Notes under the pieces: generated by a model
Databases searched by the model: none
What the model was told of the DNA's origin: nothing
What the model saw: the letters and a program-made list of their open reading frames with translations, nothing else
Position numbers and translations under genes: made by a program
Source: Deltaproteobacteria bacterium
Lineage (GTDB): Bacteria; Myxococcota_A; UBA796; UBA2385
Reading direction: 5' to 3'
NCBI GenBank assembly: GCA_016792625.1
Contig: JAEUKK010000027.1
Span: forward strand, 78,424-142,423
Length of the DNA: 64,000 nucleotides
Shown here: one piece after another, positions 15,124-47,584 of the stretch
How positions within the stretch are numbered: position 1 is the stretch's first letter
How the letters are laid out: the number at the start of each line of letters is the position of its first letter

Positions 15124-17985
15124 TCAGAACTGACCGCGGAGGCCGAGCTGGAAGTAGCGCGGCGACTGCCGGGCGATCGGCTGGCCCTGCCAGGCGTTGC
15201 CGTCGGGGTCGAGGTAGGGGCCGCCCGCGGGGTCGTCGGCCTCGGTGGCCACGCCGGTCACCGTGCGGTCGTTAAAGACGTTGAAGCACTCGACGGTCAG
15301 CGCCCAGGCGGTGGGGCCGGCGCCAAAGCTCAGGCCGCCCTTCAGATCGGTCTGCGAGAAGGCGGGCAGGCGGTAGTCGCCGTCGATGGGCTCCTGCGCG
15401 TTGTTCCAGGCGCCGTAGTTGTCGTTCCAGTAGATGGGCCGCCAGGGGTAGCCCGAGCTGAAGTTGAAGTTCCAGCCGGCCAGCAGGCCCATGTTGGACT
15501 TGCCGACGCTCCACAGCGCGTCGTTGCGCCACGAGCCGGCGAACTTCACGTTGTGCGGCACGTCGTAGGGCATGAGGCCCACGTCGACGTTGTTCTGCTG
15601 GGGGATGTCCATGGCCGAGCTGGCGAGGCCCTGGCTCTGGTCGTCGCGCGCCCGCCCATAGGCCCGGCTGTAGGTGTAGCTGCCGAGCACACCCCAGCTG
15701 TCGCCAAACTGGCGCGAGGCGGCGACCTCCATCGAGTTGTAGCGGATGAAGGCCTCGTCGGGGGTCCGCAGGCGGAACAGCGCCTCGCCGCTGCCGTCGC
15801 GGCTGCCGATCACCTGCGTGCCGTCGGCGTTCCAGATGAGGTTGACCTCATCATCTTCGAACATGTTGCGGGTGAACTCGTGGGTGTAGTTGACGTCCAC
15901 CAGCCAGCCGCCGCCCAGATCGCGGGACACACCCACATCGAACTCGTCCGAGACGGGGGTCTGCAGGTCGGGGTGCTTGAGGAAGCTGTCGGCGAAGGCA
16001 TAGCTGGGCTCGGTCGACCAGTCGCCGGCCTGGCTGTCCCAGTTGTAGTAGCCGCCGCCGTTCAGCCCGCGGGCGAGGATGCTTGAGACCGACAAGAAGG
16101 CAGGGTCGTAGAAGCGGCCGTAGTAGGCGTGCAGGGCGGTGGTGCCCTTGCCGTCGAGGTCGGCCGCAAAACCCAGGCGCGGCGCCACGTTCACGCTCGA
16201 GTAGACCTTCTCGTCGACGTTGTTGTAAAAGGCGCTCTGGTCGAGGCGCACGCCCGGCCGCAGGGTGATGCGGGGCACGGGCTGCCAGACGTCTTGCAAA
16301 TAGACCCCGACCATGCTGCCGCGGAACTCGGCCTCGCTGTCGCTGTCGTACTTGATGAGCAGGGTGGGCTCATAGCCGGCGAGGTCTGAGGGGTCGCCGT
16401 TGTGGCTGTAGTACGGCATTCCCTGCGCGTAGCCGGGGTAGACCGTATAGGTCGAGACGAGGTCGGCCTGCACGCCCAGCTTGATCTGGTGCTCACCCAA
16501 GAAGCGCGCGAGCTGGGTGACCGAGAGGGTCAGGGCGTTGCGCTCGCGGCGGTCGATCGACGAGTCGGGGGTCATGCCGTACTGAAAGCCGTCGGCGTCA
16601 TAGGGCAAGAAGCTGTCGTAGTCCTGGGCGAAGCTGTCTTGGCACACGCCGACGTCGTTGTAGTTCTTGCAGTCCTTCCATTGCATGGGGCCGGTGATGA
16701 TGTAGCTGTGGTTGGTCGACAGCTGGGTGTCGATCACCGTGCTCGGCCCGGGCGTCCACTGGTGGCCCAGGCTGGCCAGCCAGCCGCCCTGTCGCCACCA
16801 GGTCTCTGCGTTGGGCAAGACATAGGGGTCGGCGGTCGCGTTGTCGATGTTGGTCGGGTCACCCTGGGCGTGCAGCCAGATCCGGTGGTTGGCCGAGGGC
16901 TTGTAGGTCAGCTTGCCGAAGAGGTAGCGGCTGCGCCAGTCGCGGGTCGCCAAGTCAAAGCCGGCGGGGCGGATGTCGCGGACCTCTTTGGTCATCACCG
17001 GGGTGTACAGGCTCTTGGTGAGCTGCAGGCCGGTAAAGAACCAGAGCTTGTCTTTGATGATCGGCCCGCCCACGTTGACCGCGAGCAGCTGGTCGGCGTT
17101 GTCGGGCTTGGGCACGCCCTTCTCTTCGGGCAGCGGCTGGTAGAGCTGGGTCTCGGTGCCGCTGTACAGCAGCTGCAGGTCGGCGGTGAATTTGTTGCCG
17201 CCCGAGCGGGTCACCACGTTGACCGCGCCGCCCATCGCTCGGCCATACTCGGCGTCCATGCCGCCGGTGATGACCTGGAACTCTTCGATGGCGTCATAGT
17301 TCATGTTCACAGAGAAGGTGTTGGTCACCGGGTCTGTGGTGTTCACGCCGTCGACGAAGTATTGGTTTCCAAACGAGAGGCCGCCGCGCATATTGGGGTT
17401 GCCCCCGCCGACCACGCCCGGCGCAAAACCCATCACCGACTGGTAGTCGCGGCCCGCGTTGGGGATGTCACGCAGCTGCTCGCGCGACATCACCGTGCCT
17501 GTGCGCGCGTTGGTCGCGTCGAGCGGCGGGCGCACGTCGGTGACCGTGATGGCCTCGCCGGCCTGGGCGAGGCTCAGCGGCACGTCGAGGCGGGCGGTCA
17601 GGCCCGAGCTGATGCGGGCGCGGGCCTTGGCGTCGTGGAAGCCCGGGGCCTGCACCAGCACGTCGTACTCGCCAACCGGCAGGGCCATGAAGCGGAAGTT
17701 GCCGTCGGCGTCGGCGCTGGCCTGCTTGGTGCCCTGCAGGGCGTCGGACTTGATCGTGATGAGCGCGGCGGGGACGGGCAGGCCCTCGGCGTCGCTGACC
17801 TTGCCGGCCAGCGCGCCGGTGAGCTCGACCGCGAAGGCGGGCAGGGCCGGCAGCAGGGTGAACAGGGTCAGGAGGGCCTGCAGCGACCAGCGCACGACCG
17901 GGAGGCGGCGCGCGGGCGGGGCGTGGAGTGGGCGACGGGACAAAGGGAGCTCCTCTCTCGGGCGGGCGAGCGCGGAGCCTACCAC
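15124..17985 (-). CDS. Oar-like TonB-dependent receptor (carboxypeptidase-regulatory-like N-domain, plug and beta-barrel)
   Basis: CarboxypepD_reg-like GKVSDAEGLPVPAALITIKS ... DGNFRFMALPVGEYDVLVQAPGF. Plug motifs NPNMRGG ... QYFVDGV ... DAIEEFQV ... AEYG ... GGAVNVVT. Terminal aromatic residue (...LGLRGQF). The true start is probably an internal GTG near 17898. Confidence 0.8.
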   Translation of the reverse strand: MVGSALARPREELPLSRRPLHAPPARRLPVVRWSLQALLTLFTLLPALPAFAVELTGALAGKVSDAEGLPVPAALITIKSDALQGTKQASADADGNFRFMALPVGEYDVLVQAPGFHDAKARARISSGLTARLDVPLSLAQAGEAITVTDVRPPLDATNARTGTVMSREQLRDIPNAGRDYQSVMGFAPGVVGGGNPNMRGGLSFGNQYFVDGVNTTDPVTNTFSVNMNYDAIEEFQVITGGMDAEYGRAMGGAVNVVTRSGGNKFTADLQLLYSGTETQLYQPLPEEKGVPKPDNADQLLAVNVGGPIIKDKLWFFTGLQLTKSLYTPVMTKEVRDIRPAGFDLATRDWRSRYLFGKLTYKPSANHRIWLHAQGDPTNIDNATADPYVLPNAETWWRQGGWLASLGHQWTPGPSTVIDTQLSTNHSYIITGPMQWKDCKNYNDVGVCQDSFAQDYDSFLPYDADGFQYGMTPDSSIDRRERNALTLSVTQLARFLGEHQIKLGVQADLVSTYTVYPGYAQGMPYYSHNGDPSDLAGYEPTLLIKYDSDSEAEFRGSMVGVYLQDVWQPVPRITLRPGVRLDQSAFYNNVDEKVYSSVNVAPRLGFAADLDGKGTTALHAYYGRFYDPAFLSVSSILARGLNGGGYYNWDSQAGDWSTEPSYAFADSFLKHPDLQTPVSDEFDVGVSRDLGGGWLVDVNYTHEFTRNMFEDDEVNLIWNADGTQVIGSRDGSGEALFRLRTPDEAFIRYNSMEVAASRQFGDSWGVLGSYTYSRAYGRARDDQSQGLASSAMDIPQQNNVDVGLMPYDVPHNVKFAGSWRNDALWSVGKSNMGLLAGWNFNFSSGYPWRPIYWNDNYGAWNNAQEPIDGDYRLPAFSQTDLKGGLSFGAGPTAWALTVECFNVFNDRTVTGVATEADDPAGGPYLDPDGNAWQGQPIARQSPRYFQLGLRGQF

Positions 17986-18050: not shown

Positions 18051-19412
18051 ATGTCCACCCCCCGCTCTCCCTCCCCCTGGCCCCGCGCGCACCGCGCCCT
18101 CCCCCTGCTGCTCGGCCTGCTGGGCTGCGGGGCCGAGGGTGAAAAAGACGTCAGCGGTGATGAAGACGAGCAGGTCGCCGATGGCGGCGGCGCCGCCGAC
18201 GGGGGCGCGCCGACCACCGACCTGACCTGGCACCAAGACATCGCGCCGATCTTCTCGCAGAGCTGCGAAGGTTGCCACGGCGCGACCGGGGGCGGCGGTG
18301 GGCTCGACCTGTCGACCCCCGAGCGGGCGGCCGAGTGGGCCTTGCCGATCGCCGCGGCGGTCGAGGCCCGGCGCATGCCCCCGTGGACGGCGGCCGACGA
18401 CTGCAACAGCTACCAAGGCGACTTCTCGCTGAGCGCCGAGGACCGGGCCAAGGTCGTCGAGTGGGCCCGGGCCGGCGCGCCGGCGGGCGACCCAGCGACC
18501 GCGGCCGCGCTGCCGCCGGCCTACACGCCCCCGGTGCTGGACCGGGTCGACCTGCAGCTTGAGCTGCCGGTCGAGTACACGCCTGATCCTGGCCAGCCCG
18601 ATGATTACCGCTGCTTCTTGGTGGATTGGCCCTGGGCCGAAGACGCCTGGGTGACCGGCACGCACATCCGGCCGACCAACGAGGCGATCGCCCACCACGT
18701 CATCACCTTCCTCATCCCGCCCGAAGATGTGGCCACCTACGAGGCCCTCGACGCCGCCGACGCGGCCCCCGGCTACCCCTGCTATGGCGGGCCGGGCGGC
18801 GACATCGACTCGCTGCAGACCATGCGCTGGCTGGGTGCCTGGGCGCCGGGCGGCGGCGCGGCGGTCTACCCCGAGGGCACCGGCCTGCGGGTGCGGCCGG
18901 GCAGCAAGCTCGTGCAGCAGATGCACTACAATACGCTGGGCGGGCCCGGCGCCGACCGCACCGTGATGGACTTGCGGGTCGAGACCACCCCCCAGGGCTG
19001 GGCCGACATCCAACCCTGGACGGATGTGCGCTGGGTCCTGGGCGTGGGCATGGACATCCCCGCCAACACCGAGGGGGTCAGCCACGAGTTCCGCTACCGT
19101 GCGGGCGCGGGCGATCGCTTCGCCTTCCACAACGCCGCGCTGCACATGCACACCATGGGCGTGAGCGCCAGCTTGCACGTCGAGCACGCTGATGGCAGCG
19201 AGACCTGCCTGCTGCGCGAAGACAGCTGGGACTTCAACTGGCAGCGCACCTACGCGCTGACCACGCCGGTCAACGTGACCCCGGGCGACGAGATCGTGCT
19301 GCGCTGCACCTGGGACAACGAGAGCGACCAAAACGCGGCCTGGGGCGAGGGCACCGGCGACGAGATGTGCCTCGCGACCACCTACATCACCGACAGCTGG
19401 CCCGAGGACTGA
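18051..19412 (+). CDS. Lipoprotein with a cytochrome c (CxxCH) motif fused to a copper type II ascorbate-dependent monooxygenase-like (PHM/DBH-like) domain
   Basis: Lipobox LLGLLGCGAEG. SCEGCHG carries CxxCH. PHM-like motifs are present in order: DDYRCFLVDWP ... AIAHHVITFLI (HH), LVQQMHYNTL (H), AFHNAALHMHTMGV (HxH), GTGDEMCLATTYI (Met ligand). Confidence 0.7.
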   Translation: MSTPRSPSPWPRAHRALPLLLGLLGCGAEGEKDVSGDEDEQVADGGGAADGGAPTTDLTWHQDIAPIFSQSCEGCHGATGGGGGLDLSTPERAAEWALPIAAAVEARRMPPWTAADDCNSYQGDFSLSAEDRAKVVEWARAGAPAGDPATAAALPPAYTPPVLDRVDLQLELPVEYTPDPGQPDDYRCFLVDWPWAEDAWVTGTHIRPTNEAIAHHVITFLIPPEDVATYEALDAADAAPGYPCYGGPGGDIDSLQTMRWLGAWAPGGGAAVYPEGTGLRVRPGSKLVQQMHYNTLGGPGADRTVMDLRVETTPQGWADIQPWTDVRWVLGVGMDIPANTEGVSHEFRYRAGAGDRFAFHNAALHMHTMGVSASLHVEHADGSETCLLREDSWDFNWQRTYALTTPVNVTPGDEIVLRCTWDNESDQNAAWGEGTGDEMCLATTYITDSWPED

Positions 19413-24327: not shown

Positions 24328-25161
24328 TCAGGGCTTGGGCGCGGAGAGCGAGTTGAGCTCGTCAAAGCCCGGCAGCGTCGAGAGGTCGGGCACCAGCACG
24401 ATCTCGATGCGGCGGTTGCGGGCCCGGGCGTCGACGTTGGTGTTGGGCACGGTGGGGCGGCTGTCGCCGAAGGCCGCGGCGCTCACGTTGCCTGGGGCCA
24501 TCCCGCCCTCGATCAGGGCCTTGAGCACGGTGATCGCGCGGGCGCTGCTCAGCTCCCAGTTGGAGGGGAAGGTCGCGCTTTTGATCGGCACGTCGTCGGT
24601 GTGGCCCTCGACCTGAAAGCGCCGGTCGCCCAGGGTGGCCAGGATGGCGCCGACCTCCATCACCGCCTGCTTCCCTTGGGGGGAGAGGGCCGCTTTGCCG
24701 CTGCCGAACAGGATGTCGGTGGCCATCTCGACCACGAGGCGCCCGTCGACCACCTTGACCCGCAGCTTGCCCGACTCGACCATGCCGGCGAAGCGGGCGA
24801 GAAGTGACTTGTACTCGGCGATCCGGTCGTCGGCCGCCTTCTTGCGCGCGGCCAGCTCGGCGAGGGCGCGGCTCATGTCCATCACCGAGTCGGTCAGCTG
24901 ACCCTTCTCGGACATCAGCCGGGCGACGTCTTCCCGCAGCTTGTCGGCCTCGGCGCCCAGCGTGGCCGTGCGGCGCTCTTCGGCGTCGAGTGAGGCCATC
25001 AGGGCCTCGGACTCGGCCTTGCGGTCGCGCAGCGCCTCGCGGGTCTTGTCGAGGACAGCGGCCTGCTCGTTGTACTTGCGCTTGCTAACGCAGCCGGTGC
25101 CCAGGGCGAGGGCCAGGGCCACCAGCAGCAGCGCACGGGGAGCGGAGGAGAGGAGGGGCAT
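24328..25161 (-). CDS. OmpA/MotB-family peptidoglycan-binding lipoprotein with a coiled-coil N-region
   Basis: Lipobox ALALGTGCVS. Coiled coil of about 120 aa. C-terminal OmpA domain FQVEGHTDDVPI ... NWELSSARA ... NRRIEIVL. Confidence 0.8.
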   Translation of the reverse strand: MPLLSSAPRALLLVALALALGTGCVSKRKYNEQAAVLDKTREALRDRKAESEALMASLDAEERRTATLGAEADKLREDVARLMSEKGQLTDSVMDMSRALAELAARKKAADDRIAEYKSLLARFAGMVESGKLRVKVVDGRLVVEMATDILFGSGKAALSPQGKQAVMEVGAILATLGDRRFQVEGHTDDVPIKSATFPSNWELSSARAITVLKALIEGGMAPGNVSAAAFGDSRPTVPNTNVDARARNRRIEIVLVPDLSTLPGFDELNSLSAPKP

Positions 25162-25184: not shown

Positions 25185-28100
25185 TCAGGTGGAGGTGGGC
25201 CGCTCAGAGGAAGGCGGATCAAGGGGGAGCTGCACCGCGGCCGGGTCGACCTGCTCGCCGGTCGCCTGCCCGAGCTGGCTGATCGCCTTGGCGATCCCGC
25301 GTCGCAGCTCGTCGAGGAAGGCCGCCTGCTCACCCGGCGGCAGGCGCTGGCGCACCTGCTCGGTGACCAGCGCGGCGAGGGCCTGCATGACCGGCAAGGC
25401 GCCGCTGAGCACATACTCGCCGGCCCGCAGCTGGCGCTGGGCGCCAGCCTGCATGCGCCCATAGGCCACCAAGGCGCGCTGCACCTCGGCGAGGATGGCG
25501 TGCCGCATGACCATATCGGCCTCTGCCCCCACCTCGAGGTCGGGGATGAGCCAGGGCGTCGATATGGGGGTTGTGCTTGTGTTGGCGGCAGCGGGGGCGG
25601 AAGACGGCGTGGGTACAACGCCCCGCAGCGCCTCGGCCAGGGCCTGGGGCAGGGCCCGGGCCAGGGCGGCGGCCTCAGCGCGGGCGGCGTCGAGCGCGGC
25701 GGTGAGGGGGGCCTGGGCTGCGGGGGCGGCGGCCCGCAGCGCGCCCACCTCGGCGCGCAGGGCGTCGAGGGGCGGGGTCAGCGCGGCGCCTAACGCGACG
25801 GCGGCGCGGTCGGCCCCGGGCGCGCGCAGGGCCTCGTCGATGCGGTCGAGGCTAGCCCCGAGGCCGGTCAGGGTGCCGGTGACCCGGGCGACCGGGTCTT
25901 GGTCGCTGCCGCCCATCAGCCGCTGCCGGGCGAATTCTTTGCAGATGGCGGCCCAGCGCTCTTGTTGGGCCGGCGTGGCCCGCCCGCGCAGCACGGCGAG
26001 CTTGAGCAGGTTGCTCTCGGCGCCGGTGGTCAGGGTCTGGGATTCGCCGACGTAGTGGTCGTCGACGAGGCGCTCGACCTCGTCGGGGGTCATCGCGCTG
26101 GCGATCTTTTCGCTGAGCTTGGCCATGTTGCGGTAGCTGCCCTGCAGCTTGAACGGCGGCTCGGTGCGGAATTTGTCGTCGACCCCCGCGCTGCGGATGT
26201 ACTCGGCGTTGACCTTGAGCAGGGTCTCGCGCACCCGCTCCATGCGCAGGAGCACCGCGCCGATCTCTTCTTGTTCCGCAGCCGAGGTGTCGGCGCTGAG
26301 CTTGGTCTGGTCAATCTCAACGCCGTGGGCCCGGTCGAGCAAGAAGTAGAGGTCGGCGAGAGGCCGGGCGGCGAGGGGGGCCAGCACGGGGTTGCTGGTG
26401 AGGCAGTTCTCAATGTAGGACAGGCCGAAGAGGTCTTGTCGGCCGCCGAGGATGTCGCCGAGGTTGTAGGTGTCGGCCCGGTTGGCCAACATGTCGGGGA
26501 TCTGAAAGCGGGCCCCGGTCTCGGTGTAGGGGTTCCCGGCCATGACCACGCAGAACTTCTTGCCCTTGAGATCGTAGGTGCGGCTCTTGCCCTTCCAAAT
26601 TCCTTCGACCCGACGGGTGCCGTCACAGAGCGAGATGAACTTTTGCAGCAGCTCGGGGTTGGTGTGCTGGATATCGTCGAGGTAGAGCATCACGTTCTCG
26701 CCCATCTCAAAGGCGAGGTTGATCTTCTCGACCTCTTGGCGGGCGGTCGCGTCGGGCGCCTGCTCGGGGTCGAGGCTGGTCACCGCGTGCCCGATGCTCG
26801 GGCCGTTGACCTTCATGAAAACGAGCCCCAGCACGTTGGCCACGTACTCCATGAGCGTGGTCTTGCCGTAGCCCGGCGGCGAGATGAGCAGCAGCAGGCC
26901 CATGGTGTCGGTGCGCTTGCCCGCGCCGGCCGCGCCGAGCTGCTTGGCGAGGTTGTTGCCGATGAGCGGCAGATACACCTCGTTGATCAACCGGTTGCGC
27001 ACAAATGAGGTCATCGGCTTGGGCTTGAGCTCATCGAGGCGCAGGGCCTTGCGGGCGCGCTCGACCACCCCGTGGCGGGCGGCCCGCAGCGCGGCGAAGC
27101 CGGGCACCTGCACCGCGCAGAAGCGCTCGAGGCGCGGGCCCAGCTCGTCGGCCCGCAGGCGCAGCTTCCCGCCCTGCACCCGCGCATGTTGGCCGAGCAG
27201 GCCGCTGATCTCGAGCTCGAGCGCCACCGCGCTGGGCGCCCGGTCGAGGCTGCGGTCGGTGATCAGGGCCACCGCCGCCTCGCGGGCGGCGAAGCTGTGC
27301 TCGATGAGCTTGGGGTCGCCGCCATAGCGCACCAGCGCGTCGAGCCAGCTCTCGACCAGCCCGAGGCGCGCGCCGAGATCGGCGTCGAGCGCGCGCAGGT
27401 CCTCTTCGAGGGCGGCGCGTTGGCGGGCGGCGTCGAGGCGGGCCTGCAGGGCGCTGAGCAGGGCGCTGGCGGCGGCGCTCAGCACGAAGCGGGGGCGCTC
27501 GGCGGCCAGCTCTTCGGCGAGGTAGGCCGCGGCCTCGGGCACCACCTCGGTCACCCAGGGGGTGCTGGGCAGGCGGTCGCGCGCCCAGGGGCCGATCACC
27601 CCGGCGAGGGCGGCGGTCAGGGCCCCGCGCGCCGGCGCTTGGGGGAAGGCGGCGATCAAGCGGGCGGCGGCGACGGCCTGGCGGTGCAGGGCGGCGCGCT
27701 GCTCACGGTCGCTGAGCGTGGCCCACCACAGGGCGCCCAGCGCCCGCGCGCTGGCCGAAAACCGCAGCAGGCCCACCGATCGACGCAGCCCGAGCAGCTT
27801 CTCGAGGATGGCCGCCGCGTCGGCGTCATGCACCCCCCGCTCGTAGCCCTCGTCGTAGCGGGTCGCCGCGAAGGCCCGCACCCGCTCGAGCAGGCCGCCC
27901 TCGACGAGCAGGGCCTCTTCGAGCGCGGCGACGCTGAGGCCGCCCGTGCCCGCCTCGGCCGCCCGCAGCAGGGCGTGGGCGAGGAACTCGGCGCGGTAGA
28001 CCTCGGCGTCTTCGCTGGCCACCGCCATCGACCAAAATGGCCGCGTGGACAGCAGCTCGGGGTCGGTCACCTCTTCGTAGTAGCCGGTTCCCGTGAGGTG

Positions 28101-30788
28101 CAGGGCCATACCCTCGCCGCGGGGCAGCAGGGTCAGCTCGACCGCGGCCTTGTTCACCGCGAAGCGGTGCTGGCCGAACTTGATGAGCTCGGCGCCCTCG
28201 TCGAAGAGGTCGAGCTTGTCGCGAATGACCCGCAGGGCGTTGGCCCGCACGGCGAGCAGGCGGCCAGCGAGGTCTTCGGACTTGACGCTGTCGCCGAGGG
28301 CGGCGAGCTGCTCGCTGATCTGGCGGACCTTCTGCACCATCGGGTCGCTGGCATACCAGGCAGCCAGCTCACGTTCGGCGGCAAAACCGCGGGCCCGCCG
28401 GTTGAGCCCCTCGAGGATGCGCGCCGCGGCGCTGATCAGGGCCTCGACCCGGCGCTGGCGCTCCTCGGTGAGCTGCTGGCGGCGGGCCTCAAATGCGTCG
28501 CTGACCTCTTCTCGTTTGTTGGCGATGTCAGCCAGGAAGGTGTCGAACTCGCCGAAGCGCCCCTCGAGCTCTTCGAGCTGCACCATGAGGCGGCCGCGTT
28601 GGGCGTCGCAGGCCTCGGGGGTGTCGGAGAGGCTGAGCGCGCTGCTGACCCCCTGGGCCAACAGCTTGAACTGGGCGGAGAACTCGGCCTGGGCCTCGAC
28701 CCGCCCGAGCTCACGTTTGCGGTTGTCGAGCAGGGCCCGCACCCGGTTGAGCTGGGCGAAGACCTCCGAGATGCGCTCGAGGATGGCCGTGCGCTGCACC
28801 GGGTCGCCGACCTCGAGCCCGCCGACCACCTCGGTGAGCAGGTTGAGGCCCTGGGCGGTGCGGTCGACGTCGGTGGCCACCTCTGCGCCCTCGGCGGCGC
28901 GCTTGAGCTGGGGCAGGCGGGCCTCGACGGCGCGGATCTGGTCGGTGATCCCGCTCAGGGCGGCGGGCTGCTGCAAGAAGCTGACGACCCCCACCGAGAG
29001 CGCGCCCTGGGCGGCGATGGTGGCCGCTTCGAGGGCGTCGAGGGCGGCCCGGTCGACCAAGCGCAGCTCTTTGAGGGTGATGAGCTTGCCCCTGTGCTCT
29101 CGCAGGCGGGCCATTCCGTCCATGAACGCGGGCAGGTCGGCCATGACCTCGGCGCGGCAGTCGAGCAACAGGCGGTCTTGTTCGGCGGTCGCACCTTCGA
29201 CCGCCTCTTTGGCCCGCCGCTGCAGGGCCTGCAGCTTCTCGAACTCGTCGATGATCAGCTCGGCGTTGCGCCGGGCCTGCTCGAGCCCGCGGCGGAGCTG
29301 GCCGTCGACCACCGCGCCGAGCCAGTGGAAGTGATCGATGACCCGGGTGGTCGCGCGGACCAAGTCCTCAAAAACGGGGCGGGAGGGGCTGAGGTTGCCC
29401 AGCTGGCGCGCGATGGCCAGCACCTCGCTCAGGCCGCGGACCAGATCGGCGTTCCCAATGCGGCCCAGCGGGCCGGCAGGTGCGGGCGTGTTCGCGTGGT
29501 GCTCGTCGCTGGTGAAGGGGGTCCGCCAGATTTGGAGCGGGTGCACCCGCGTCGGCTCTTCGGACTCGGCGCGGAAGATGACCAGCCGCCCGTCATCAAA
29601 GAGGCTGTAGCCGTGGCCGCCGATGGGTGTGGCGACCTCTTGCCGGATCAGGTTGTAGGGCAGGAGGACATAGACCCCCGTCTCTTCCCGGTGGAAGACA
29701 TAGAGGACGTCTTCGCCGTTGGGCGCCCGCACCATGCGCTTGAAGATGAGGCCCTCGGGCCGCTCATCGAAGATCCGAGAGACCCCCGACCGCAGGTAAT
29801 ATCCCCCGGGGAAGATGATGCCGTGGTCCTCGGGCAGCTGCACGCAGGCCTGGCCGATCGCGTCAATGCGGCGGACCTCACGGTTGCGGGTGTTGAACAA
29901 GAGGGTGCGGGTCTGCTCTTCGCCGAAGGGGCGGATACTGAGCAGCACGATGTTCCCGACCAGCGCGTACTTGATCTGCGCGTCGTCGAGGCTCTGGTGG
30001 GGGTCGTTGACCGGCTCGGCGTAGATGCCCTTGCCGGTCTTCGTGTTGTTCTCGACCTTGATGGTCAGGTCGCCGCCGATGGTCTCGACGAAGACCTTGT
30101 CGGCGATGTTGACGTGGGGGTGGTCGCCGAGCTCGTGGTCTTCGCGGGTGGTCGTGACCCAGTCGAAGTCGTGGGGCGGCGGGAAGGTGTGGTCCCGCTC
30201 GCCGCGGTTGTCGATGTAGCGCGGGCGGACGCCGGGCAGCATCTCCCAGCGGAAGACGCGCAGGTCGTCGGCCCGCTCGCCGATGCGAAAGACCGCCAGC
30301 AGCTTGTTGTCGAGCTTGCGAAGGGTGACCACCCGCGCGTCGCGGTAGTATTGGTAGAGCTCTTTAAATTGCGTGACGAAGCTCGGGTCGCTCAGCAGGC
30401 CCTCTTCGTCCTCGGCGGCGCCCAGATCCCAGCCCTCGGGCCCCTCGACGATGCGGTGCAGGCTGAACACGTCGCTGATCTGCACCTCGCGCTTGAGCGC
30501 GAAGCGCACGTTGTAGGCCAGCAGCAGCTTGCCGTTGACGTTCACGATGTTGCGCGGCACACACTTGTGCTCGGTGCGCACGCGCTCGTTGCCGATGACC
30601 ACTAGCTCTTGCCCGCCGAAGGTCTCTTTGCGCTGGGTGTTGAGCCCGTCGGCGAGCTGCAGCAGGGTCCGGGCGTCCTCTTCGAGGCGGGCACGCAGCA
30701 GGTCGTAGTTGCCGCCCTCGAGCTTCGGGGCGCCGCCCTGGGGGGCGGCGGCGGGCGCGGGTGCAGGGGGCGCGGGATCGGTGGCCAT
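25185..30788 (-). CDS. Giant (1867 aa) coiled-coil protein with a single MoxR/AAA_5-like AAA+ ATPase module; function unknown
   Basis: Uninterrupted ORF from the ATG at 30788. Walker A GLLLLISPPGYGKTTLMEY (near 26850-26880 on the minus strand). Walker B VMLYLDDIQHTNPE. FCVVMAGNPYTETG is typical of AAA_5/MoxR. Beta-rich N-terminal domain of about 480 aa; long helical/coiled-coil regions either side of the ATPase. No transmembrane segment. Confidence 0.8.
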   Translation of the reverse strand: MATDPAPPAPAPAAAPQGGAPKLEGGNYDLLRARLEEDARTLLQLADGLNTQRKETFGGQELVVIGNERVRTEHKCVPRNIVNVNGKLLLAYNVRFALKREVQISDVFSLHRIVEGPEGWDLGAAEDEEGLLSDPSFVTQFKELYQYYRDARVVTLRKLDNKLLAVFRIGERADDLRVFRWEMLPGVRPRYIDNRGERDHTFPPPHDFDWVTTTREDHELGDHPHVNIADKVFVETIGGDLTIKVENNTKTGKGIYAEPVNDPHQSLDDAQIKYALVGNIVLLSIRPFGEEQTRTLLFNTRNREVRRIDAIGQACVQLPEDHGIIFPGGYYLRSGVSRIFDERPEGLIFKRMVRAPNGEDVLYVFHREETGVYVLLPYNLIRQEVATPIGGHGYSLFDDGRLVIFRAESEEPTRVHPLQIWRTPFTSDEHHANTPAPAGPLGRIGNADLVRGLSEVLAIARQLGNLSPSRPVFEDLVRATTRVIDHFHWLGAVVDGQLRRGLEQARRNAELIIDEFEKLQALQRRAKEAVEGATAEQDRLLLDCRAEVMADLPAFMDGMARLREHRGKLITLKELRLVDRAALDALEAATIAAQGALSVGVVSFLQQPAALSGITDQIRAVEARLPQLKRAAEGAEVATDVDRTAQGLNLLTEVVGGLEVGDPVQRTAILERISEVFAQLNRVRALLDNRKRELGRVEAQAEFSAQFKLLAQGVSSALSLSDTPEACDAQRGRLMVQLEELEGRFGEFDTFLADIANKREEVSDAFEARRQQLTEERQRRVEALISAAARILEGLNRRARGFAAERELAAWYASDPMVQKVRQISEQLAALGDSVKSEDLAGRLLAVRANALRVIRDKLDLFDEGAELIKFGQHRFAVNKAAVELTLLPRGEGMALHLTGTGYYEEVTDPELLSTRPFWSMAVASEDAEVYRAEFLAHALLRAAEAGTGGLSVAALEEALLVEGGLLERVRAFAATRYDEGYERGVHDADAAAILEKLLGLRRSVGLLRFSASARALGALWWATLSDREQRAALHRQAVAAARLIAAFPQAPARGALTAALAGVIGPWARDRLPSTPWVTEVVPEAAAYLAEELAAERPRFVLSAAASALLSALQARLDAARQRAALEEDLRALDADLGARLGLVESWLDALVRYGGDPKLIEHSFAAREAAVALITDRSLDRAPSAVALELEISGLLGQHARVQGGKLRLRADELGPRLERFCAVQVPGFAALRAARHGVVERARKALRLDELKPKPMTSFVRNRLINEVYLPLIGNNLAKQLGAAGAGKRTDTMGLLLLISPPGYGKTTLMEYVANVLGLVFMKVNGPSIGHAVTSLDPEQAPDATARQEVEKINLAFEMGENVMLYLDDIQHTNPELLQKFISLCDGTRRVEGIWKGKSRTYDLKGKKFCVVMAGNPYTETGARFQIPDMLANRADTYNLGDILGGRQDLFGLSYIENCLTSNPVLAPLAARPLADLYFLLDRAHGVEIDQTKLSADTSAAEQEEIGAVLLRMERVRETLLKVNAEYIRSAGVDDKFRTEPPFKLQGSYRNMAKLSEKIASAMTPDEVERLVDDHYVGESQTLTTGAESNLLKLAVLRGRATPAQQERWAAICKEFARQRLMGGSDQDPVARVTGTLTGLGASLDRIDEALRAPGADRAAVALGAALTPPLDALRAEVGALRAAAPAAQAPLTAALDAARAEAAALARALPQALAEALRGVVPTPSSAPAAANTSTTPISTPWLIPDLEVGAEADMVMRHAILAEVQRALVAYGRMQAGAQRQLRAGEYVLSGALPVMQALAALVTEQVRQRLPPGEQAAFLDELRRGIAKAISQLGQATGEQVDPAAVQLPLDPPSSERPTST

Positions 30789-33959: not shown

Positions 33960-34472
33960 CTATTGCCTTGGGTTGGCGGGTGTTGTCGTCGGGCGGAGCT
34001 GTTCGAGCAGGCCCCGGCCCGCCCGCAGGCAGAGGTCGTGGACGAGCGCGAAGCCCTCCGGGCCACCGTAGTAGGGGTCGGGGACCTCAGCCCCCGGCGG
34101 CGAGAGGGGGTCGAAGCTGCGCAGCAGGGCGAGCCGCGCGCGGGGCTTGGCCGGCGCGCGGGCCCGCAGCGCCTCGAGGTTGTGCGCGTCGAGCGCGATG
34201 ATCCAGTCGAAGCGCTGAAAGTCATCGGGCCGCAGCCCCCGGGCGCGGTGGCGCAGGGCGAGCCCGCGGCGGGCCGCTTCGGCCGCGCTGCGGGGGTCGG
34301 GCGCCTCGCCGGCGTGCAGGTCGATGGTGCCCGCGCTGTCGATGTCGAAGCGCGACCCGAGCCCTTCCGCGGCGACCAGGTCGGCGAAGATGGCCTCTGC
34401 GACGGGGCTTCGGCAGATGTTGCCCATGCACACGAAGAGCACGCCCAGGCGCTCGCCCGCTCCGCTCGTCAT
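33960..34472 (-). CDS. Low-molecular-weight protein tyrosine phosphatase
   Basis: P-loop VLFVCMGNICRSPVAE (CX5R) and the DPYYG motif. The ORF 33960..34517 is trimmed to MTSGAGERLGVLFV. Confidence 0.8.
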   Translation of the reverse strand: MTSGAGERLGVLFVCMGNICRSPVAEAIFADLVAAEGLGSRFDIDSAGTIDLHAGEAPDPRSAAEAARRGLALRHRARGLRPDDFQRFDWIIALDAHNLEALRARAPAKPRARLALLRSFDPLSPPGAEVPDPYYGGPEGFALVHDLCLRAGRGLLEQLRPTTTPANPRQ

Positions 34473-34549
34473 CCGGCCTCCTCGGCGCCGACCGGGCGCC
34501 CCCCGGCGCAATAGCATGGGGCGCCCGCCCGCCGCCCGGAGCTGCGACC

Positions 34550-37726: not shown

Positions 37727-39676
37727 TCAGCGGCTGGGGATGACCGCGATGTCGGCGTCGTCGGGATCACCGCAGTCCGCGGTGTAGCCGTCGCCGTCGG
37801 TGTCGGTGCCCAGCGTCGGGCAGAAGCTCAGCACCCGACCCTCGAGGTCGTAGGGGTCGGTCGAGCGGAAGACGTCGCCGCTGGAGCCGCTGTAGATGTA
37901 GCCGAAGCGCTCCCACATCAGGCGCTGGCGGCCGGTGCCGAGGCCCAGCGCGCCGGTGTAGGGCTCGGCGGCCGACATGTCGGTCTCGCGGTCGGCGGTC
38001 GTACCCGCGCCGCAGCTCCAGCCGACCACCGCGTCGGTCGCGTAGGTGCCGCCGATGTCGTAGACCTCGTCGTGGCGGATCTCGAAGCTGCCGTCGATGA
38101 ACAGCAGGGCCGAGAAGGTGTTGGGGCTGTACAGGTCGGAGCTGTTCCAGAAGCTGGTGTTCACCCAGTAGATGCCCACCGCGTCGTCAAATTCGACCGC
38201 GTAGACCGCGCCCTGCTCTTCGGGGATCTCGGTCAGCTCGGCGGCCATGTCATCCCACAGCACGGCGATCATGGGGTTCTTCGCCGAGGTGCCCGTGGCC
38301 GAGCTCAACATGTCGTTCGACGAGGGGCTGAGGTCGTAGCTGCCCAGGCCGAAGTGCAGGCGGCCGTTGGTGTCGACCCGCACGCCGGTCTGGCTCGTGC
38401 CGCAGAAGGGGAAGGTGAGGGTGGGGAAGCTCACCGTCGTGATGCCGTCGTCGGTGTCGGTGAAGGTGACCTCGAGCGCGTCGGTGTCGGCCGCGTCGAC
38501 GAGGCCGTCGCAGTCGTTGTCGAGCGTGTCGGTGTCGGTCGACAGCTCGAGCGCGTAGGGGCGGATGGCCGCGTCGGTGTCGTCGCAGTCATCGCCGCCG
38601 TAGGCGCTCGCCGCGAAACCATCGACGTCCGCGTCGTAGTCATCGCCGCCCGCGCAGTCCTGGTCGAAGCCGTCGTACCAGAGCTCAGCGGCGCCGGGGT
38701 AGGTGGCCGCGTCGCTGTCATTGCAGTCAGTGCCGCTGTACTCATCGCTGTCGACGCCGTCGAGGTCGGCGTCGAAGTCGCTGGTGGTCGAGCAGTCCTG
38801 GTCGACGCCGTCGTACCAGATCTCGGTGGCCGCGGTGTTGATCGCGCTGTCGGTGTCGTTGCAGTCGGTGCCGCCGTAGGCGCTCGCGTCGAAGCTGTCG
38901 AGGTCGGCGTCATAGTCGCTGCCGCCGCTGCAGTCGTTGTCGGCGCCGTCGTACCAGGTCTCGGTGTTGCCCGGGTAGGCCGCCTCGTTCGTGTCGTCGC
39001 AGTCGGTGTTGTCGTCGACGTGCTCGGTGGGCTGGCTGCAGGCCACCGCGGGGGTGGCGGGGTCGCCGTAGCCGTCGCCGTCGGCGTCCCAGTACCAGGT
39101 AAACGCGTCGACGCTGTCGCTGCCGTCGATCACCGTGTCGCAGTTGTCGTCGATGCCGTTGCAGGACTCGTCGGCGTCGGGCGCGATGGCCGAGTTGGCG
39201 TCATCACAGTCACCGGCTTCGGCGGCGAGGCCGGCGGCGGCGCCGCAGGTGGTCACCGGCAGCGACTCGTCGCCGAAGCCGTCGCTGTCGGCGTCGGTGT
39301 AGTAGGTGAGCGTGCCGGTGACGCTGTCGTCCTCCATGTCGATGAGGCCGTCGCAGTCGTTGTCGATGCCGTCGCAGGCCTCGGTCGCGCTGGGGTTGAC
39401 CGCGGGGTCGCTGTCATCGCAGTCCACGTCGGCGGTGGCGCCGTCTTCGTCGGCGTCGACCGGGCCGCCGTCGGTGCCATCGGCGCCGTCTGCGCCATCG
39501 GCGGTGCCGTCGTCTGCGGTGCCGTCATCAGCGGTGCCGTCGTCTGCGGTGCCGTCATCAGCGGTGCCGTCATCGGCGGCGCCGCCGCTGTCCTTGTCGC
39601 TGGTCGGTTCGCAGCCGGTCAGCAGGCCGCCCGCGAGGGCGAGGAGGAGGGAGGGGAACAGGCGCGACATGGTCAT
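37727..39676 (-). CDS. Lipoprotein with myxobacterial MopE-like 'putative metal-binding' Cys/Asp-rich repeats
   Basis: MTMSRLFPSLLLALAGGLLTGCEP lipobox. (GTADD)x5 low-complexity linker. At least 7 repeats of ...DADGDGYG ... DCDD ... NP ... E.C(D/N)G.D(N/Q)DC(D/S)G.D. The C-terminal 280 aa form a different, unknown domain. The ORF 37727..40060 is trimmed to the ATG at 39676. Confidence 0.7.
   Translation of the reverse strand: MTMSRLFPSLLLALAGGLLTGCEPTSDKDSGGAADDGTADDGTADDGTADDGTADDGTADGADGADGTDGGPVDADEDGATADVDCDDSDPAVNPSATEACDGIDNDCDGLIDMEDDSVTGTLTYYTDADSDGFGDESLPVTTCGAAAGLAAEAGDCDDANSAIAPDADESCNGIDDNCDTVIDGSDSVDAFTWYWDADGDGYGDPATPAVACSQPTEHVDDNTDCDDTNEAAYPGNTETWYDGADNDCSGGSDYDADLDSFDASAYGGTDCNDTDSAINTAATEIWYDGVDQDCSTTSDFDADLDGVDSDEYSGTDCNDSDAATYPGAAELWYDGFDQDCAGGDDYDADVDGFAASAYGGDDCDDTDAAIRPYALELSTDTDTLDNDCDGLVDAADTDALEVTFTDTDDGITTVSFPTLTFPFCGTSQTGVRVDTNGRLHFGLGSYDLSPSSNDMLSSATGTSAKNPMIAVLWDDMAAELTEIPEEQGAVYAVEFDDAVGIYWVNTSFWNSSDLYSPNTFSALLFIDGSFEIRHDEVYDIGGTYATDAVVGWSCGAGTTADRETDMSAAEPYTGALGLGTGRQRLMWERFGYIYSGSSGDVFRSTDPYDLEGRVLSFCPTLGTDTDGDGYTADCGDPDDADIAVIPSR
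39485..39590. repeat. Tandem 15-bp repeat (gcggtgccgtc[a/g]tc[a/t]) encoding (A/T)DDGT x5-6 within the MopE-like lipoprotein gene
   Basis: Direct head-to-tail near-identical 15-nt units visible at 39490-39590. Confidence 0.6.
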
Positions 39677-39792
39677 GGAGTGCTCCGGCGGCAGTGGGGA
39701 CGCGCGGGCAACCCGCGCGAGCAGCGGCGCGATACCACGCCGATGCGCCACTGTCCTGACACCAGCCTCACATCCGGCGCCCCGGAGCCTCC

Positions 39793-46347: not shown

Positions 46348-47325
46348 TTACGTAGCCGTCGTGATCTTCGGCGCAGTTTGGGTGGAGGAGGCCGGGCCCG
46401 GGTGGAGCGCGGTCATGCCCAGCCAGACCACCGAGAGCCAGACCGCGTCGGCGAGGAGCAGGTGGACCAGCTGCGCCCAGACCGGGGCCAGCAGCGCGAG
46501 GTTGATGACACCCACAGTGATCTGGGTGAGGAAGAGGCCAAGCACCACCAGCGCCGACCGCCGCGCCGCGGCCCCGCGGCCAAAACCCACCGCCACCGCG
46601 ACCACCGCGGTGAAGCCGCCGACCAGCACCGCGCCGAGCGGATGGAAGACCCGCAGGCGGATGAGCAGGTGGGCGGTGGGGGAGAGGTCCTGCGCGATCC
46701 CCTCGGCGAGGCTGCCCGCGGGGAAGAGCGTGTCGCCGAGCGCGGTCACCGCCCCGCTGGCCCCGAGCACCAGCAAGAGGCCGAGGTTGACGGCCAGCAG
46801 CACCAAGGGAGCGCCTTGGCCCCGCAGCTGCACCGCCGGCGCGCCCGTGGCCCAGCGGGCGGCGATGAGGTTGCTGGCCAGCAGCAAGAAGGTGTTGCCC
46901 AGGTGCACGGCCATGATGACCGCCCGGCCGATGCTGTCGTCTTGGCCGACCTTCTTGAGCAGCACGATCGCCGCGCCCACCCCCGCCTCGGCCAGCATGA
47001 AGCCCATGGTCACCAGGGCTGCCCGCCGCACCCGGTGCCCGGCCGGCCAGGCGCGCCAGCCCAAGATCAGCGTGGCGAGGGTCATCAAGAGCACCACCCC
47101 GCTGGTGAGCCGGTGGGTGAGCTCGATGAGGGTCTCGACCGCCGGCGCGCGCGGCACCAGCTCGCCGTTGCACATCGGCCAGTGATCACCGCAGCCGGCG
47201 CCCGAGCCCGAGGCCCGCACAAAGGCCCCCCAGGCGATCACGAAGAAGTTGACCAGCAGGGTGGCCCAGGCGAGGCGGGCGGCGCGCTGCTGCGCAGGCG
47301 AAGCGGCGGGGTCGGCGAAGAGCAT
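46348..47325 (-). CDS. ctaA: Heme A synthase (CtaA/COX15 family)
   Basis: GAFVRASGSGAGCGDHWPMCNG plus multiple TM helices and conserved His residues. The ORF 46348..48156 is trimmed to the ATG at 47325. Confidence 0.8.
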   Translation of the reverse strand: MLFADPAASPAQQRAARLAWATLLVNFFVIAWGAFVRASGSGAGCGDHWPMCNGELVPRAPAVETLIELTHRLTSGVVLLMTLATLILGWRAWPAGHRVRRAALVTMGFMLAEAGVGAAIVLLKKVGQDDSIGRAVIMAVHLGNTFLLLASNLIAARWATGAPAVQLRGQGAPLVLLAVNLGLLLVLGASGAVTALGDTLFPAGSLAEGIAQDLSPTAHLLIRLRVFHPLGAVLVGGFTAVVAVAVGFGRGAAARRSALVVLGLFLTQITVGVINLALLAPVWAQLVHLLLADAVWLSVVWLGMTALHPGPASSTQTAPKITTAT

Positions 47326-47584
47326 CGGGCGCCTCGACAGGGCGAGGCCCGGGCAGCGGAGGGCGCCGCGGCGCGGGCAAGGTGCCGCTCTAATCGGGGC
47401 GGAGGGGCGCGCCCCGGGCGGTGGTGGGCGGCGCGCCCAGATCAGCGCGCGGCAGGCAGGACACCGCGCTGCAATCGACGCAGCTTGCGCCGGTCCGGTA
47501 CAAGAGCTGCGGGAGGGCCTGCGTGGGCCGTACCGGGGCCGCCGTCGCCCCTGCACCCGCGCCCCCTTCCTCCTGGAGGAGCCT

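Follow-up and report, generated by a model that had tools for sequence, protein, structure and literature searches.

A DUF3686-family AAA+ ATPase encoded beside a flotillin-like protein: a candidate remodeller of flotillin scaffolds

The role of bacterial flotillins and of their NfeD/YqiJ partners is still debated, and the cages formed by SPFH proteins are now known structurally. In HflK/C-FtsH and Vps4-ESCRT-III, an SPFH cage or a membrane-remodelling polymer is coupled to an AAA+ machine; to our knowledge, HflK/C-FtsH is the one case in which SPFH cages have been linked to an energy-consuming partner. Known ATPases of the MoxR class (CbbQ, NorQ and RavA) operate with a vWA partner (CbbO, NorD and ViaA). 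The closest described relative of the locus considered here, a flotillin-YqiJ-AAA+ operon, was described computationally in 2024 in the context of PspA and envelope stress (PMC11237479). That study proposes sub-membrane assembly and membrane dynamics for the operon, covers an ‘abbreviated’ form as well, and suggests that PspA elsewhere in the genome serves the abbreviated form.

The stretch of deltaproteobacterial DNA analysed here (64,000 nucleotides, hereafter the window) carries the same cassette, in the order YqiJ/NfeD-like membrane protein, 718-aa flotillin-like SPFH protein and ATPase (Table 1). The Pfam domains and the gene order agree with those of the DUF3686 family and the published cassette, at 50-63% identity. 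The PspA-CesT/Tir pair adjacent to the full form is missing at the window locus, which thus represents the ‘abbreviated’ form, and the window cassette differs further by an added OmpA-like lipoprotein, shared with its closest relatives only, and by a variable C-terminal tail of its own. Because a comparative-genomics study had already reported the association, the window adds a confirming member, structural predictions and the OmpA-like addition, and no discovery; the new context is the strict cassette around the window gene, the operon itself being known.

Table 1. Features of the cassette in window coordinates; domains and motifs are those of the ATPase.
Feature	Residues	Position	Strand	Basis
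Gene 1: YqiJ/YuaF (DUF1449, short NfeD-like) membrane protein, 243 aa		33151..33882	(-)	Homology and hydrophobicity
Gene 2: flotillin-like SPFH protein, 718 aa		30923..33079	(-)	NCBIfam, Pfam, homology
Gene 3: DUF3686-family AAA+ ATPase, 1867 aa		25185..30788	(-)	ORF, Pfam and homologue comparison
N-terminal helix ahead of propeller	27-57	30618..30710	(-)	AF2 N-half model, pLDDT >90
Predicted beta-propeller, ~seven four-stranded blades, core of DUF3686	60-425	29514..30611	(-)	Pfam, AF2 and Foldseek
Helical region I, three long coiled-coil-like helices (51-58 residues)	430-865	28194..29501	(-)	Pfam and AF2
Pfam DUF7902, inside helical region I	610-693	28710-28961	(-)	Pfam
Small beta domain, breaks up helical region	866-930	27999..28193	(-)	AF2 strands at 869-906
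Helical region II, bundles of 10-36-residue helices	931-1290	26919..27998	(-)	AF2
AAA+ alpha/beta core and lid	1291-1500	26289..26918	(-)	
Walker A, SPPGYGKTT	1303-1311	26856..26882	(-)	Invariant in homologues
Walker B, LYLDD	1368-1372	26673..26687	(-)	DD pair invariant; Asp-Asp, not Asp-Glu
Pre-sensor-1 beta-hairpin, RVEGIWKGKSRTYD	1393-1406	26571..26612	(-)	AF2: two strands between alpha-3 and beta-4
Strand beta-4 and sensor 1, FCVVMAGNP (Asn1419)	1412-1420	26529..26555	(-)	Sequence and conservation
Candidate arginine-finger motif, MLANRAD (Arg1437)	1433-1439	26472..26492	(-)	N-R-A-D invariant
Post-AAA helical domain, conserved	1501-1640	25869..26288	(-)	63% identity; AF2 helical
C-terminal tail, variable, Ala/Pro-rich	1641-1867	25188..25868	(-)	16% identity; pLDDT partly low
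Gene 4: putative lipoprotein, 277 aa, signal peptide and Cys, coiled coil, OmpA/MotB-type peptidoglycan-binding domain		24328..25161	(-)	Pfam OmpA, E 1e-17

The ATPase ORF is a genuine gene: at 0.92, its GC3 is what real genes in this ~73% GC window typically show, and a homologue of the same length (P0001) is 94% identical. An earlier note on this DNA had read the same 1867-aa protein and judged its architecture to fit no nameable family. The gene is confirmed, but the novelty gives way to a large, database-annotated family. Pfam searches find DUF3686 (PF12458; E 9e-195, 647.8 bits against a cut-off of 25; residues 43-488, profile positions 3-448 of 448), DUF7902 (PF25472; 89.2 bits against 26) and a single C-proximal AAA+ module, and family members, at 50-63% identity, are colinear with the protein over its full length. 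At least 120 listed homologues of 1650-2030 aa carry the same precomputed Pfam set at 50-94% identity and 87-100% query coverage; representatives with the N-domain measure 1590-2036 aa when complete. In all, more than 6400 homologues from at least seven phyla share one common architecture. By its sequence, the protein is a member of the known DUF3686 + DUF7902 + AAA family and not unprecedented. In the literature searched, no paper mentions DUF3686, PF12458 or DUF7902 or pairs ‘DNA repair ATPase’ with flotillin, and no experiments on any family member were found; wider searches yielded the PSP comparative-genomics paper and general papers on SPFH proteins, and nothing else.

The N-domain, which the earlier note had called beta-rich and proposed to check for a propeller, is all-beta in the AlphaFold model (pLDDT ~90), and the predicted fold together with Foldseek supports a beta-propeller. 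The structural matches are the propellers of Elp1, CyRPA, the clathrin terminal domain, prolyl oligopeptidase and Ski8 (E 1e-5 to 1e-3), and mean identity in the region is 60% across homologues. More than 1000 residues of coiled coil had also been claimed. The helical content stands, at 1048 residues in the models, but only three helices reach 40 residues (493-543, 663-720 and 749-799), the others measuring 10-36 residues in bundle-like domains, and the small beta domain interrupts the run. Conservation is high in the pre-AAA linker at the end of helical region II (residues 1261-1295; 82% identity), and the post-AAA domain is modelled with pLDDT of at least 90 over most of its length. Alignments to other phyla by tblastn end at about residue 1650. 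The note's statement that TM helices and nuclease or helicase motifs are absent is borne out: hydrophobicity reveals no TM helix in the ATPase (maximum Kyte-Doolittle 19-residue mean 1.39), and domain searches return AAA-type and DUF domains only, with no nuclease, helicase or DNA-binding domain. Scanning for promoters and terminators gave no information in DNA this rich in GC, the counts equalling the shuffled expectation.

No part of the ATPase is nearly as conserved as the AAA+ core (85% identity), and core and lid lie ~50-60 residues upstream of the 1340-1560 interval first assigned to them. Walker A, Walker B and FCVVMAGNP, all recognized at the outset, are invariant or nearly so in 89 homologues, and the catalytic motifs are also invariant in 15 cross-phylum sequences. 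In the pre-sensor-1 hairpin, whose strands span model residues 293-298 and 301-306, E, G, T, Y and D do not vary across phyla and W is kept in at least 90%. MLANRAD falls at the end of the helix ahead of strand beta-5 in the model and, by analogy with the LxxxLxDRF motif of MoxR and RuvB, Arg1437 is probably the arginine finger. The Walker B DD in place of DE may make hydrolysis slow or switch-like, and the pore-loop-1 position (GHxVTSLDPxEAPNAT) has no aromatic residue, which makes classical polypeptide threading doubtful. The MoxR/AAA_5-like assignment holds up on the predicted fold, to which MoxR-class structures are the closest. The Pfam AAA_5 match is marginal (24.8 bits against a cut-off of 22) and lower than that of the generic PF00004 (30.8 bits). 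A PDB search with the whole protein and a profile of the AAA region matched only the Walker-A half of Rix7, NVL and p97 (classic clade) and RuvB, and matches so confined do not settle the clade. Between beta-2 and alpha-2 the model has a conserved 18-residue loop (~1329-1346) in which no strands are predicted.

The most informative evidence, absent from the earlier note, is the conserved neighbourhood. By tblastn, the gene immediately preceding the ATPase gene is flotillin-like in 78 of 82 loci as well as in the window, and the loci with no such match have under 300 nt of DNA ahead of the ATPase gene. In 69 of 72 loci the stop codon of the flotillin-like gene adjoins the ATPase start (median offset +3), and a YqiJ-like gene is upstream in 60 of 72. 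A fourth conserved gene was sought on both sides, and none exceeded 16 of 72 or 13 of 80 loci. Besides its N-terminal TM helix (KD19 3.09) and Band-7/SPFH domain, the flotillin-like protein has a long coiled coil rich in Glu and Ala, and its C-terminal region is conserved; it matches NCBIfam FloT (E 1.3e-5, residues 47-413) and a pQBR103 ‘SPFH domain-containing protein’ (39% identity, E 1e-130), and Pfam Band_7 is matched in 5 of 16 orthologues (best E 1.5e-9). The YqiJ-like protein combines N-terminal TM helices (hydrophobic segments up to KD19 2.28), an acidic loop and a beta-rich, OB-like C-terminal part. It is 31% identical (E 3e-14) to a Hymenobacter protein annotated by NCBI as ‘DUF1449 family protein’, and Pfam YqiJ_N and YqiJ_OB are matched, weakly, in 1 of 13 orthologues. 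PDB sequence and profile searches with these two proteins gave nothing significant. In Hymenobacter this cassette comes after the genes of a CesT/Tir chaperone and PspA, and in pQBR103 after a PspA-polyamine operon. Searches by tblastn with the Hymenobacter PspA and CesT/Tir proteins found neither in the 64-kb window or the loci, a search that a divergent PspA could escape. The OmpA-like gene starts 23 nt past the ATPase stop codon, and its product also matches NCBIfam MotD, MotB and PRK09039. Only L001 and L002, the two closest relatives, also carry such a gene downstream of the ATPase, which on this comparison of loci makes it a lineage-specific addition.

How does this ATPase compare with better-known machines? 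It shares with the MoxR class the sensor-1 ‘NP’ motif, the pre-sensor-1 hairpin, the L..R arginine-finger motif and a chaperone/remodeller logic. However, and in line with the earlier note, no vWA/MIDAS partner is conserved near it in 72-80 loci. Unlike MoxR proteins, it also places its module inside an 1867-aa chain with ~1290 residues N-terminal to it, uses DD in Walker B, shows no clear helix-2 beta-hairpin in the model, and is closest in sequence to Rix7, NVL and p97 over the N-terminal half of the module (alpha-0, beta-1, Walker A and beta-2). An unrelated vWA gene lies on the opposite strand, 3 kb away, in one Corallococcus locus. As in midasin (Rea1/Mdn1) and dynein, long helical extensions would join the ATPase ring to a distal binding domain. 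Those proteins concatenate six AAA modules per chain, whereas this one has a single module and would have to oligomerise; its distal domain is a predicted beta-propeller in place of a MIDAS or microtubule-binding domain, and homology is limited to the AAA module. The pairing of an SPFH cage or membrane polymer with an AAA+ protein recalls HflK/C-FtsH and Vps4, although the coupling is read here from gene order, and the ATPase belongs to a different AAA+ clade and lacks a TM anchor, a protease domain and a MIT domain.

Together, these results suggest that the ATPase is a cytoplasmic MoxR-class AAA+ remodeller acting on or with the flotillin (SPFH) scaffold encoded upstream, a reading to which we give a probability of about 55%. 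A flotillin gene adjoins in every related locus with enough upstream DNA, so flotillin membrane scaffolds, and not DNA, are most likely what is remodelled; both cassette partners are membrane proteins, and the ATPase has no TM helix. The single AAA+ module, with its conserved Walker A, sensor 1 and candidate arginine finger, would form a ring, probably a hexamer, with the N-terminal propellers held outward by long helical arms. The propellers may dock on a cytoplasmic flotillin/YqiJ cage, or on clients held in it, and ATP binding and hydrolysis would be relayed via the pre-AAA linker and the arms, such that the cage is assembled, opened or dismantled, or clients are extracted, as part of a membrane or envelope-stress response. 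The logic would be that of midasin or of CbbQO/NorQD, in which the target is pulled via a distal binding domain. In the window lineage, the OmpA-like lipoprotein may tether the module to the envelope on its peptidoglycan side. Of the ‘mechanochemical scaffold’ proposed in the earlier note, scaffold or remodeller is retained as a reasonable functional class.

In at least seven phyla, a giant AAA+ ATPase is strictly encoded together with one flotillin subfamily, and this offers a testable handle on flotillin function. If the ATPase is a flotillin remodeller, a misleading ‘DNA repair ATPase’ annotation spread over thousands of genomes would be corrected, and a MoxR-class motor would be seen to work without a vWA adaptor. 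Could the family supply bacterial flotillin microdomains with their missing source of energy? This bolder proposal is tentative, with odds well short of even. Six ~1300-residue, propeller-tipped arms on a MoxR-like ring would grip flotillin/NfeD cages, and the ring would open, recycle or reposition them, at the expense of ATP, during envelope stress. In prokaryotes, such a machine would parallel Vps4-ESCRT-III or the machines that uncoat coats, its MoxR module having exchanged the vWA adaptor for a fused beta-propeller.

The databases imply a different role, that of a repair ATPase acting on DNA: Pfam describes DUF3686 as ‘ATPase involved in DNA repair’ and NCBI uses ‘DNA repair ATPase’. For the AAA+ half, Foldseek ranks RuvB best by E-value (7e-6), and knock-out of the Shewanella flotillin homologue SO1377 raises the spontaneous mutation rate, an effect put down by the authors to iron and oxidative stress (PMC1468410). 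However, the name looks like electronic annotation that no paper in the searched literature connects with repair, and a protein with no recognizable DNA-binding, nuclease or helicase domain, whose sole conserved neighbours are two membrane proteins, is highly improbable as a repair factor. A structural or cytoskeletal scaffold, coat-like and self-assembling, could instead organise membrane domains with ATP as an assembly switch and without mechanical work on flotillin. More than 1000 helical residues are consistent with such a protein, and Walker B DD and the pore loop without an aromatic residue fit a slow switch. The N-half does find weak Foldseek matches to the clathrin terminal domain and linker and to IFT-A, but similarity to coat proteins is very low by TM-score (0.06-0.13) and the matches are accounted for by the propeller alone, so they are not read as coat homology. 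The conservation of the AAA+ core, with sensor 1 and the candidate arginine finger intact, argues at the level of sequence for real catalysis, and a scaffold of this kind is unlikely.

The flotillin remodeller also has to be weighed against the motor of a mobile anti-phage or conflict system, with flotillin and YqiJ as membrane sensor/effector and the OmpA/ZorB-like protein serving as in Zorya. The distribution is patchy and spans many phyla, yet ATPase and flotillin remain 45-60% identical, which suggests horizontal spread, and the family is found on megaplasmids, pQBR103 among them, as well as on plasmids of Hymenobacter, Deinococcus and Streptomyces. The downstream OmpA-like protein matches PADLOC ZorB3 (3e-28), but through the generic OmpA/MotB domain only, and its gene is confined to the closest relatives. 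Zorya membership was rejected, since that system pairs ZorA (MotA-like) and ZorB with ZorC/D or ZorE, and ZorA, ZorC and ZorD are absent here. The ATPase, flotillin-like and YqiJ-like proteins match no PADLOC model, the cassette encodes no nuclease, protease, toxin or other effector, and no phage in the search carried a homologue, all of which leaves a defence role improbable. The cassette is instead repeatedly tied to PspA envelope-stress genes, and its flanking genes are variable and housekeeping in appearance; the gene upstream of the window cassette encodes an LMW phosphotyrosine phosphatase.

The decisive evidence on the 1867-residue ATPase comes from its gene surroundings, which were compared across 80 genomic loci around homologues and two plasmid loci. 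By tblastn, 78 of the 82 loci, and the window too, have a flotillin-like gene as the direct upstream neighbour of the ATPase gene; the loci lacking it begin less than 300 nt from the ATPase gene, and every locus with upstream DNA carries it. ORF clustering over 72 loci recovers the flotillin-like gene in 69, its stop codon abutting the ATPase start (median offset +3), and a YqiJ-like gene in 60. No further upstream gene is conserved (no other family in more than 16 of the 72 loci), nor is any downstream gene (no family in more than 13 of 80), and the compared loci hold no conserved vWA gene, in keeping with an earlier note on this DNA that had seen no vWA/MIDAS partner. The ATPase is strictly co-inherited with the flotillin and the YqiJ/NfeD partner, and is likely to be translationally coupled to them.

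The 718-residue flotillin-like protein matches NCBIfam FloT (E 1.3e-5, residues 47-413) and is missed, like 11 of its 16 orthologues, by the Pfam Band_7/Flot models; Band_7 is detected in the remaining 5 (best E 1.5e-9). An "SPFH domain-containing protein" of Pseudomonas plasmid pQBR103 is 39% identical to it (E 1e-130); the protein is a divergent flotillin. Its identity across phyla runs parallel to that of the ATPase, at 45-60% between Actinomycetota, Myxococcota, Planctomycetota and Acidobacteriota (orthologues in loci L002-L082), and the ATPase-linked flotillin seems to form an SPFH subfamily of its own, 640-720 aa long and slow to evolve. The 243-residue protein can be called YqiJ/DUF1449-like from its similarity to a Hymenobacter "DUF1449 family protein" (31% identity, E 3e-14); direct Pfam YqiJ_N and YqiJ_OB matches among its orthologues are weak.

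The cassette is also recurrently linked to PspA systems. On the Hymenobacter plasmid (L082, 2574-11887) "molecular chaperone Tir" and "PspA/IM30" come before it, and on pQBR103 (L081, 1-12190) the genes ahead of it encode PspA, a rhomboid protease, DUF2491, DUF350 and DUF1190 proteins and a glutathionylspermidine synthase-like protein. These arrangements match two operon classes of PMC11237479 (mSystems 2024), a comparative genomics study that described exactly this cassette operon, with CesT/Tir-PspA combined with components including a 3TM YqiJ/YuaF protein, and took the system to be machinery for sub-membrane assembly and dynamics. The association of the ATPase with flotillin is already published; the family remains a good entry point into the function of bacterial flotillins. 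Experimental work on the ATPase was not found in the literature searched, and a related Shewanella DUF1449-flotillin pair that lacks the ATPase gives iron and oxidative-stress phenotypes when knocked out (PMC1468410). The window carries an abbreviated form of the operon, with neither PspA nor Tir detected within its 64 kb. The next gene upstream of the cassette, on the same strand as the YqiJ-like gene, encodes a low-molecular-weight phosphotyrosine phosphatase (33960-34517, (-); Pfam LMWPc, E 2e-35), whose 3' end runs into the YqiJ-like ORF when that reading frame is extended.

Codon-position GC in the ATPase ORF (0.74, 0.46 and 0.92 at first, second and third positions) has the signature of real genes in a window of about 73% GC, so the ORF is genuine, and a river-sediment MAG (L001) encodes a protein of exactly equal length and 94% identity. 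The earlier note held that the architecture fits no family that can be named; it is in fact a new member of a known and widespread one, so far described computationally (Pfam DUF3686, DUF7902 and AAA). A search of 5.8 billion proteins gave 6472 of 8000 scored candidates at E below 1e-5, and the best 120 of these (1650-2030 aa, 50-94% identity, 87-100% query coverage) share its Pfam set; the names given to them, if any, are "DNA repair ATPase", "AAA family ATPase" or "MoxR-like ATPase". HMMER, run exhaustively with residues 1-500, recovered 719 clusters (50% identity level), of which 246 fall at E below 1e-30; complete members span 1590-2036 aa and the domain is N-terminal in nearly all, indicating that it is almost exclusive to one architecture. 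Carriers belong to Actinomycetota, Myxococcota, Planctomycetota, Acidobacteriota, Deinococcota, Bacteroidota and Pseudomonadota, the last including Proteus, Vibrio, Photobacterium, Halomonas and pQBR103.

Features of the ATPase and of the adjoining genes
Feature	Window position (nt)	Strand	ATPase residues	Basis or remark
YqiJ/DUF1449-like multi-TM protein, 243 aa	33151-33882	(-)		upstream of ATPase
Flotillin-like protein, 718 aa	30923-33079	(-)		upstream of ATPase; N-terminal TM helix, long Glu/Ala-rich coiled coil
ATPase, 1867 aa	25185..30788	(-)		ORF
Putative lipoprotein, 277 aa	24328-25161	(-)		coiled coil (roughly 100 residues), OmpA/MotB peptidoglycan-binding domain
DUF3686 (PF12458, "ATPase involved in DNA repair")			43-488	Pfam, E 9e-195
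DUF7902 (PF25472)			610-693	Pfam, E 2e-25
AAA, AAA_22, AAA_5, RuvB_N			1287-1422	weak Pfam matches
Disordered N-terminus			1-25	AlphaFold model
Helix			27-57	AlphaFold model
All-beta domain, about seven four-stranded blades			60-425	AlphaFold model
Helical region I			430-865	AlphaFold model
Small beta domain			866-930	AlphaFold model
Helical region II			931-1290	AlphaFold model
AAA+ alpha/beta core and lid			~1291-1500	AlphaFold model
Walker A SPPGYGKTT			1303-1311	
Walker B LYLDD	26673-26687	(-)	1368-1372	
FCVVMAGNP			1412-1420	
MLANRAD			1433-1439	invariant; beyond the earlier note's motifs
Conserved helical domain, post-AAA			1501-1640	AlphaFold model and conservation
Ala/Pro-rich tail, ~230 residues	25188-25868	(-)	1641-1867	poorly conserved, length-variable

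The protein was modelled from an 89-row alignment as two overlapping halves, 1-1150 (mean pLDDT 85.5) and 1101-1867 (mean pLDDT 80.9). Whether the N-domain is a beta-propeller had been asked in the earlier note, and Foldseek, run with the N-half against the PDB, supports one, with matches to the propellers of Elp1, CyRPA, the clathrin terminal domain, prolyl oligopeptidase and Ski8 (E 1e-5 to 1e-3). Matches to IFT-A and to clathrin with its linker were treated as propeller-driven, their TM-scores being only 0.06-0.13. Averaged over homologues, identity to the window protein is 0.85 in the AAA core, 0.82 in the pre-AAA linker, 0.63 in the post-AAA domain, 0.60 in the propeller, 0.45-0.49 in the helical regions and 0.16 in the tail, the conserved part of the family stopping at about residue 1640. 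The original observation is real except in two respects: the ATPase module, put at 1340-1560, was misplaced by some 50-60 residues (Pfam AAA/AAA_5 covers 1299-1422), and "more than 1000 aa of coiled coil" overstates the 1048 helical residues in the models, where just three helices are 40 residues or longer (493-543, 663-720 and 749-799) and the others, of 10-36, lie in bundles. The predicted absence of TM helices holds (highest 19-residue Kyte-Doolittle mean 1.39).

The Walker A, Walker B and FCVVMAGNP motifs that had been quoted are all present and, with MLANRAD, invariant or nearly so in the 89-sequence alignment as well as in another that spans phyla with 15 sequences. Sequence alone leaves the AAA+ clade ambiguous: PF00004 (30.8 bits) and AAA_5 (24.8 bits) both score above cut-off, and the family profile matches classic-clade Rix7, NVL and p97 just over alpha-0, beta-1, Walker A and beta-2 (E about 3e-7). 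Foldseek with the AAA+ half places RuvB (E 7e-6) slightly ahead of NorQ and CbbQ (E 2e-5), MoxR proteins whose target-normalised TM-scores are the higher (0.55-0.58). The model has a pre-sensor-1 beta-hairpin at 1393-1406 and, at the helix-2 hairpin position, a conserved 18-residue loop with no hairpin predicted. The sensor-1/arginine-finger stretch AGNPYTE.G..F.IPDMLANRAD resembles the MoxR/Mg-chelatase motif NP...G...LP.A.LDRF. The structural matches, the hairpin and this likeness support the MoxR/AAA_5-like call. The protein is odd in its Walker B Asp-Asp, invariant across the family in place of the usual Asp-Glu, in lacking an aromatic pore-loop-1 residue (the position holds an invariant loop, GHxVTSLDPxEAPNAT), and in the classic-clade look of the N-terminal half of the module.

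What is at hand is a soluble MoxR-class AAA+ module, its nucleotide-binding and inter-subunit (arginine) motifs intact, and a distal propeller that the models join to it through helical domains totalling about 850 residues. The favoured reading, to which we give a probability of roughly 0.55, is a ring-forming ATPase acting through its propellers on the flotillin/YqiJ cage or its clients during envelope stress. The AAA+ modules would form the ring and the propellers would bind the cytoplasmic face of the cage, or clients inside; nucleotide-driven movements, relayed via the highly conserved pre-AAA linker and the helical arms, would build up, open or take apart the cage, or pull clients out of it. 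Such a working would parallel midasin and the MoxR-vWA machines, which pull substrate via a distal adaptor, with a fused propeller in place of the vWA adaptor.

Could the protein do something else? The Walker B Asp-Asp and the non-aromatic pore loop are both unusual for a substrate-threading AAA+ ATPase. A coat-like or switch-like scaffold doing little mechanical work seems unlikely. Longer odds attach to a mobile conflict or defence module, a reading to be set beside plasmid-borne homologues and none among 50,697 phage records. A true DNA-repair enzyme is very improbable: the database name "DNA repair ATPase" is probably wrong, and domain searches of the ATPase gave no nuclease or helicase domain, in line with the earlier note, which saw no such motif. 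The probability left over is given to no named reading.

Downstream, the stop codon of the ATPase is followed after 23 nt by the OmpA-like lipoprotein gene. Beyond the window, this gene accompanies the cassette in just two loci, those of the closest relatives (L001 and L002); in the 78 other loci it does not, and it is absent from Corallococcus and from another MAG. It looks like a lineage-specific fourth component joining the cytoplasmic cassette to the periplasm, where it would anchor or report the peptidoglycan side of the proposed machine. Elsewhere in the window, two proteins have multiple MopE-type Cu-binding motifs (37727-40060, (-), and 39793-41430, (+)), one also with FG-GAP repeats. 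Taken with a TonB-dependent receptor (15124-17985) and a Cu-monooxygenase-like gene (18051-19412) that includes a cytochrome c domain, they point to a host that is Gram-negative, resembles Myxococcota and has envelope genes related to metals. A 977-residue protein (47186-50119, (+)) combines DUF1521 (Pfam E 2e-22) with an eCIS core domain (E 5e-8) and could be an effector or toxin with a relation to an extracellular contractile injection system.
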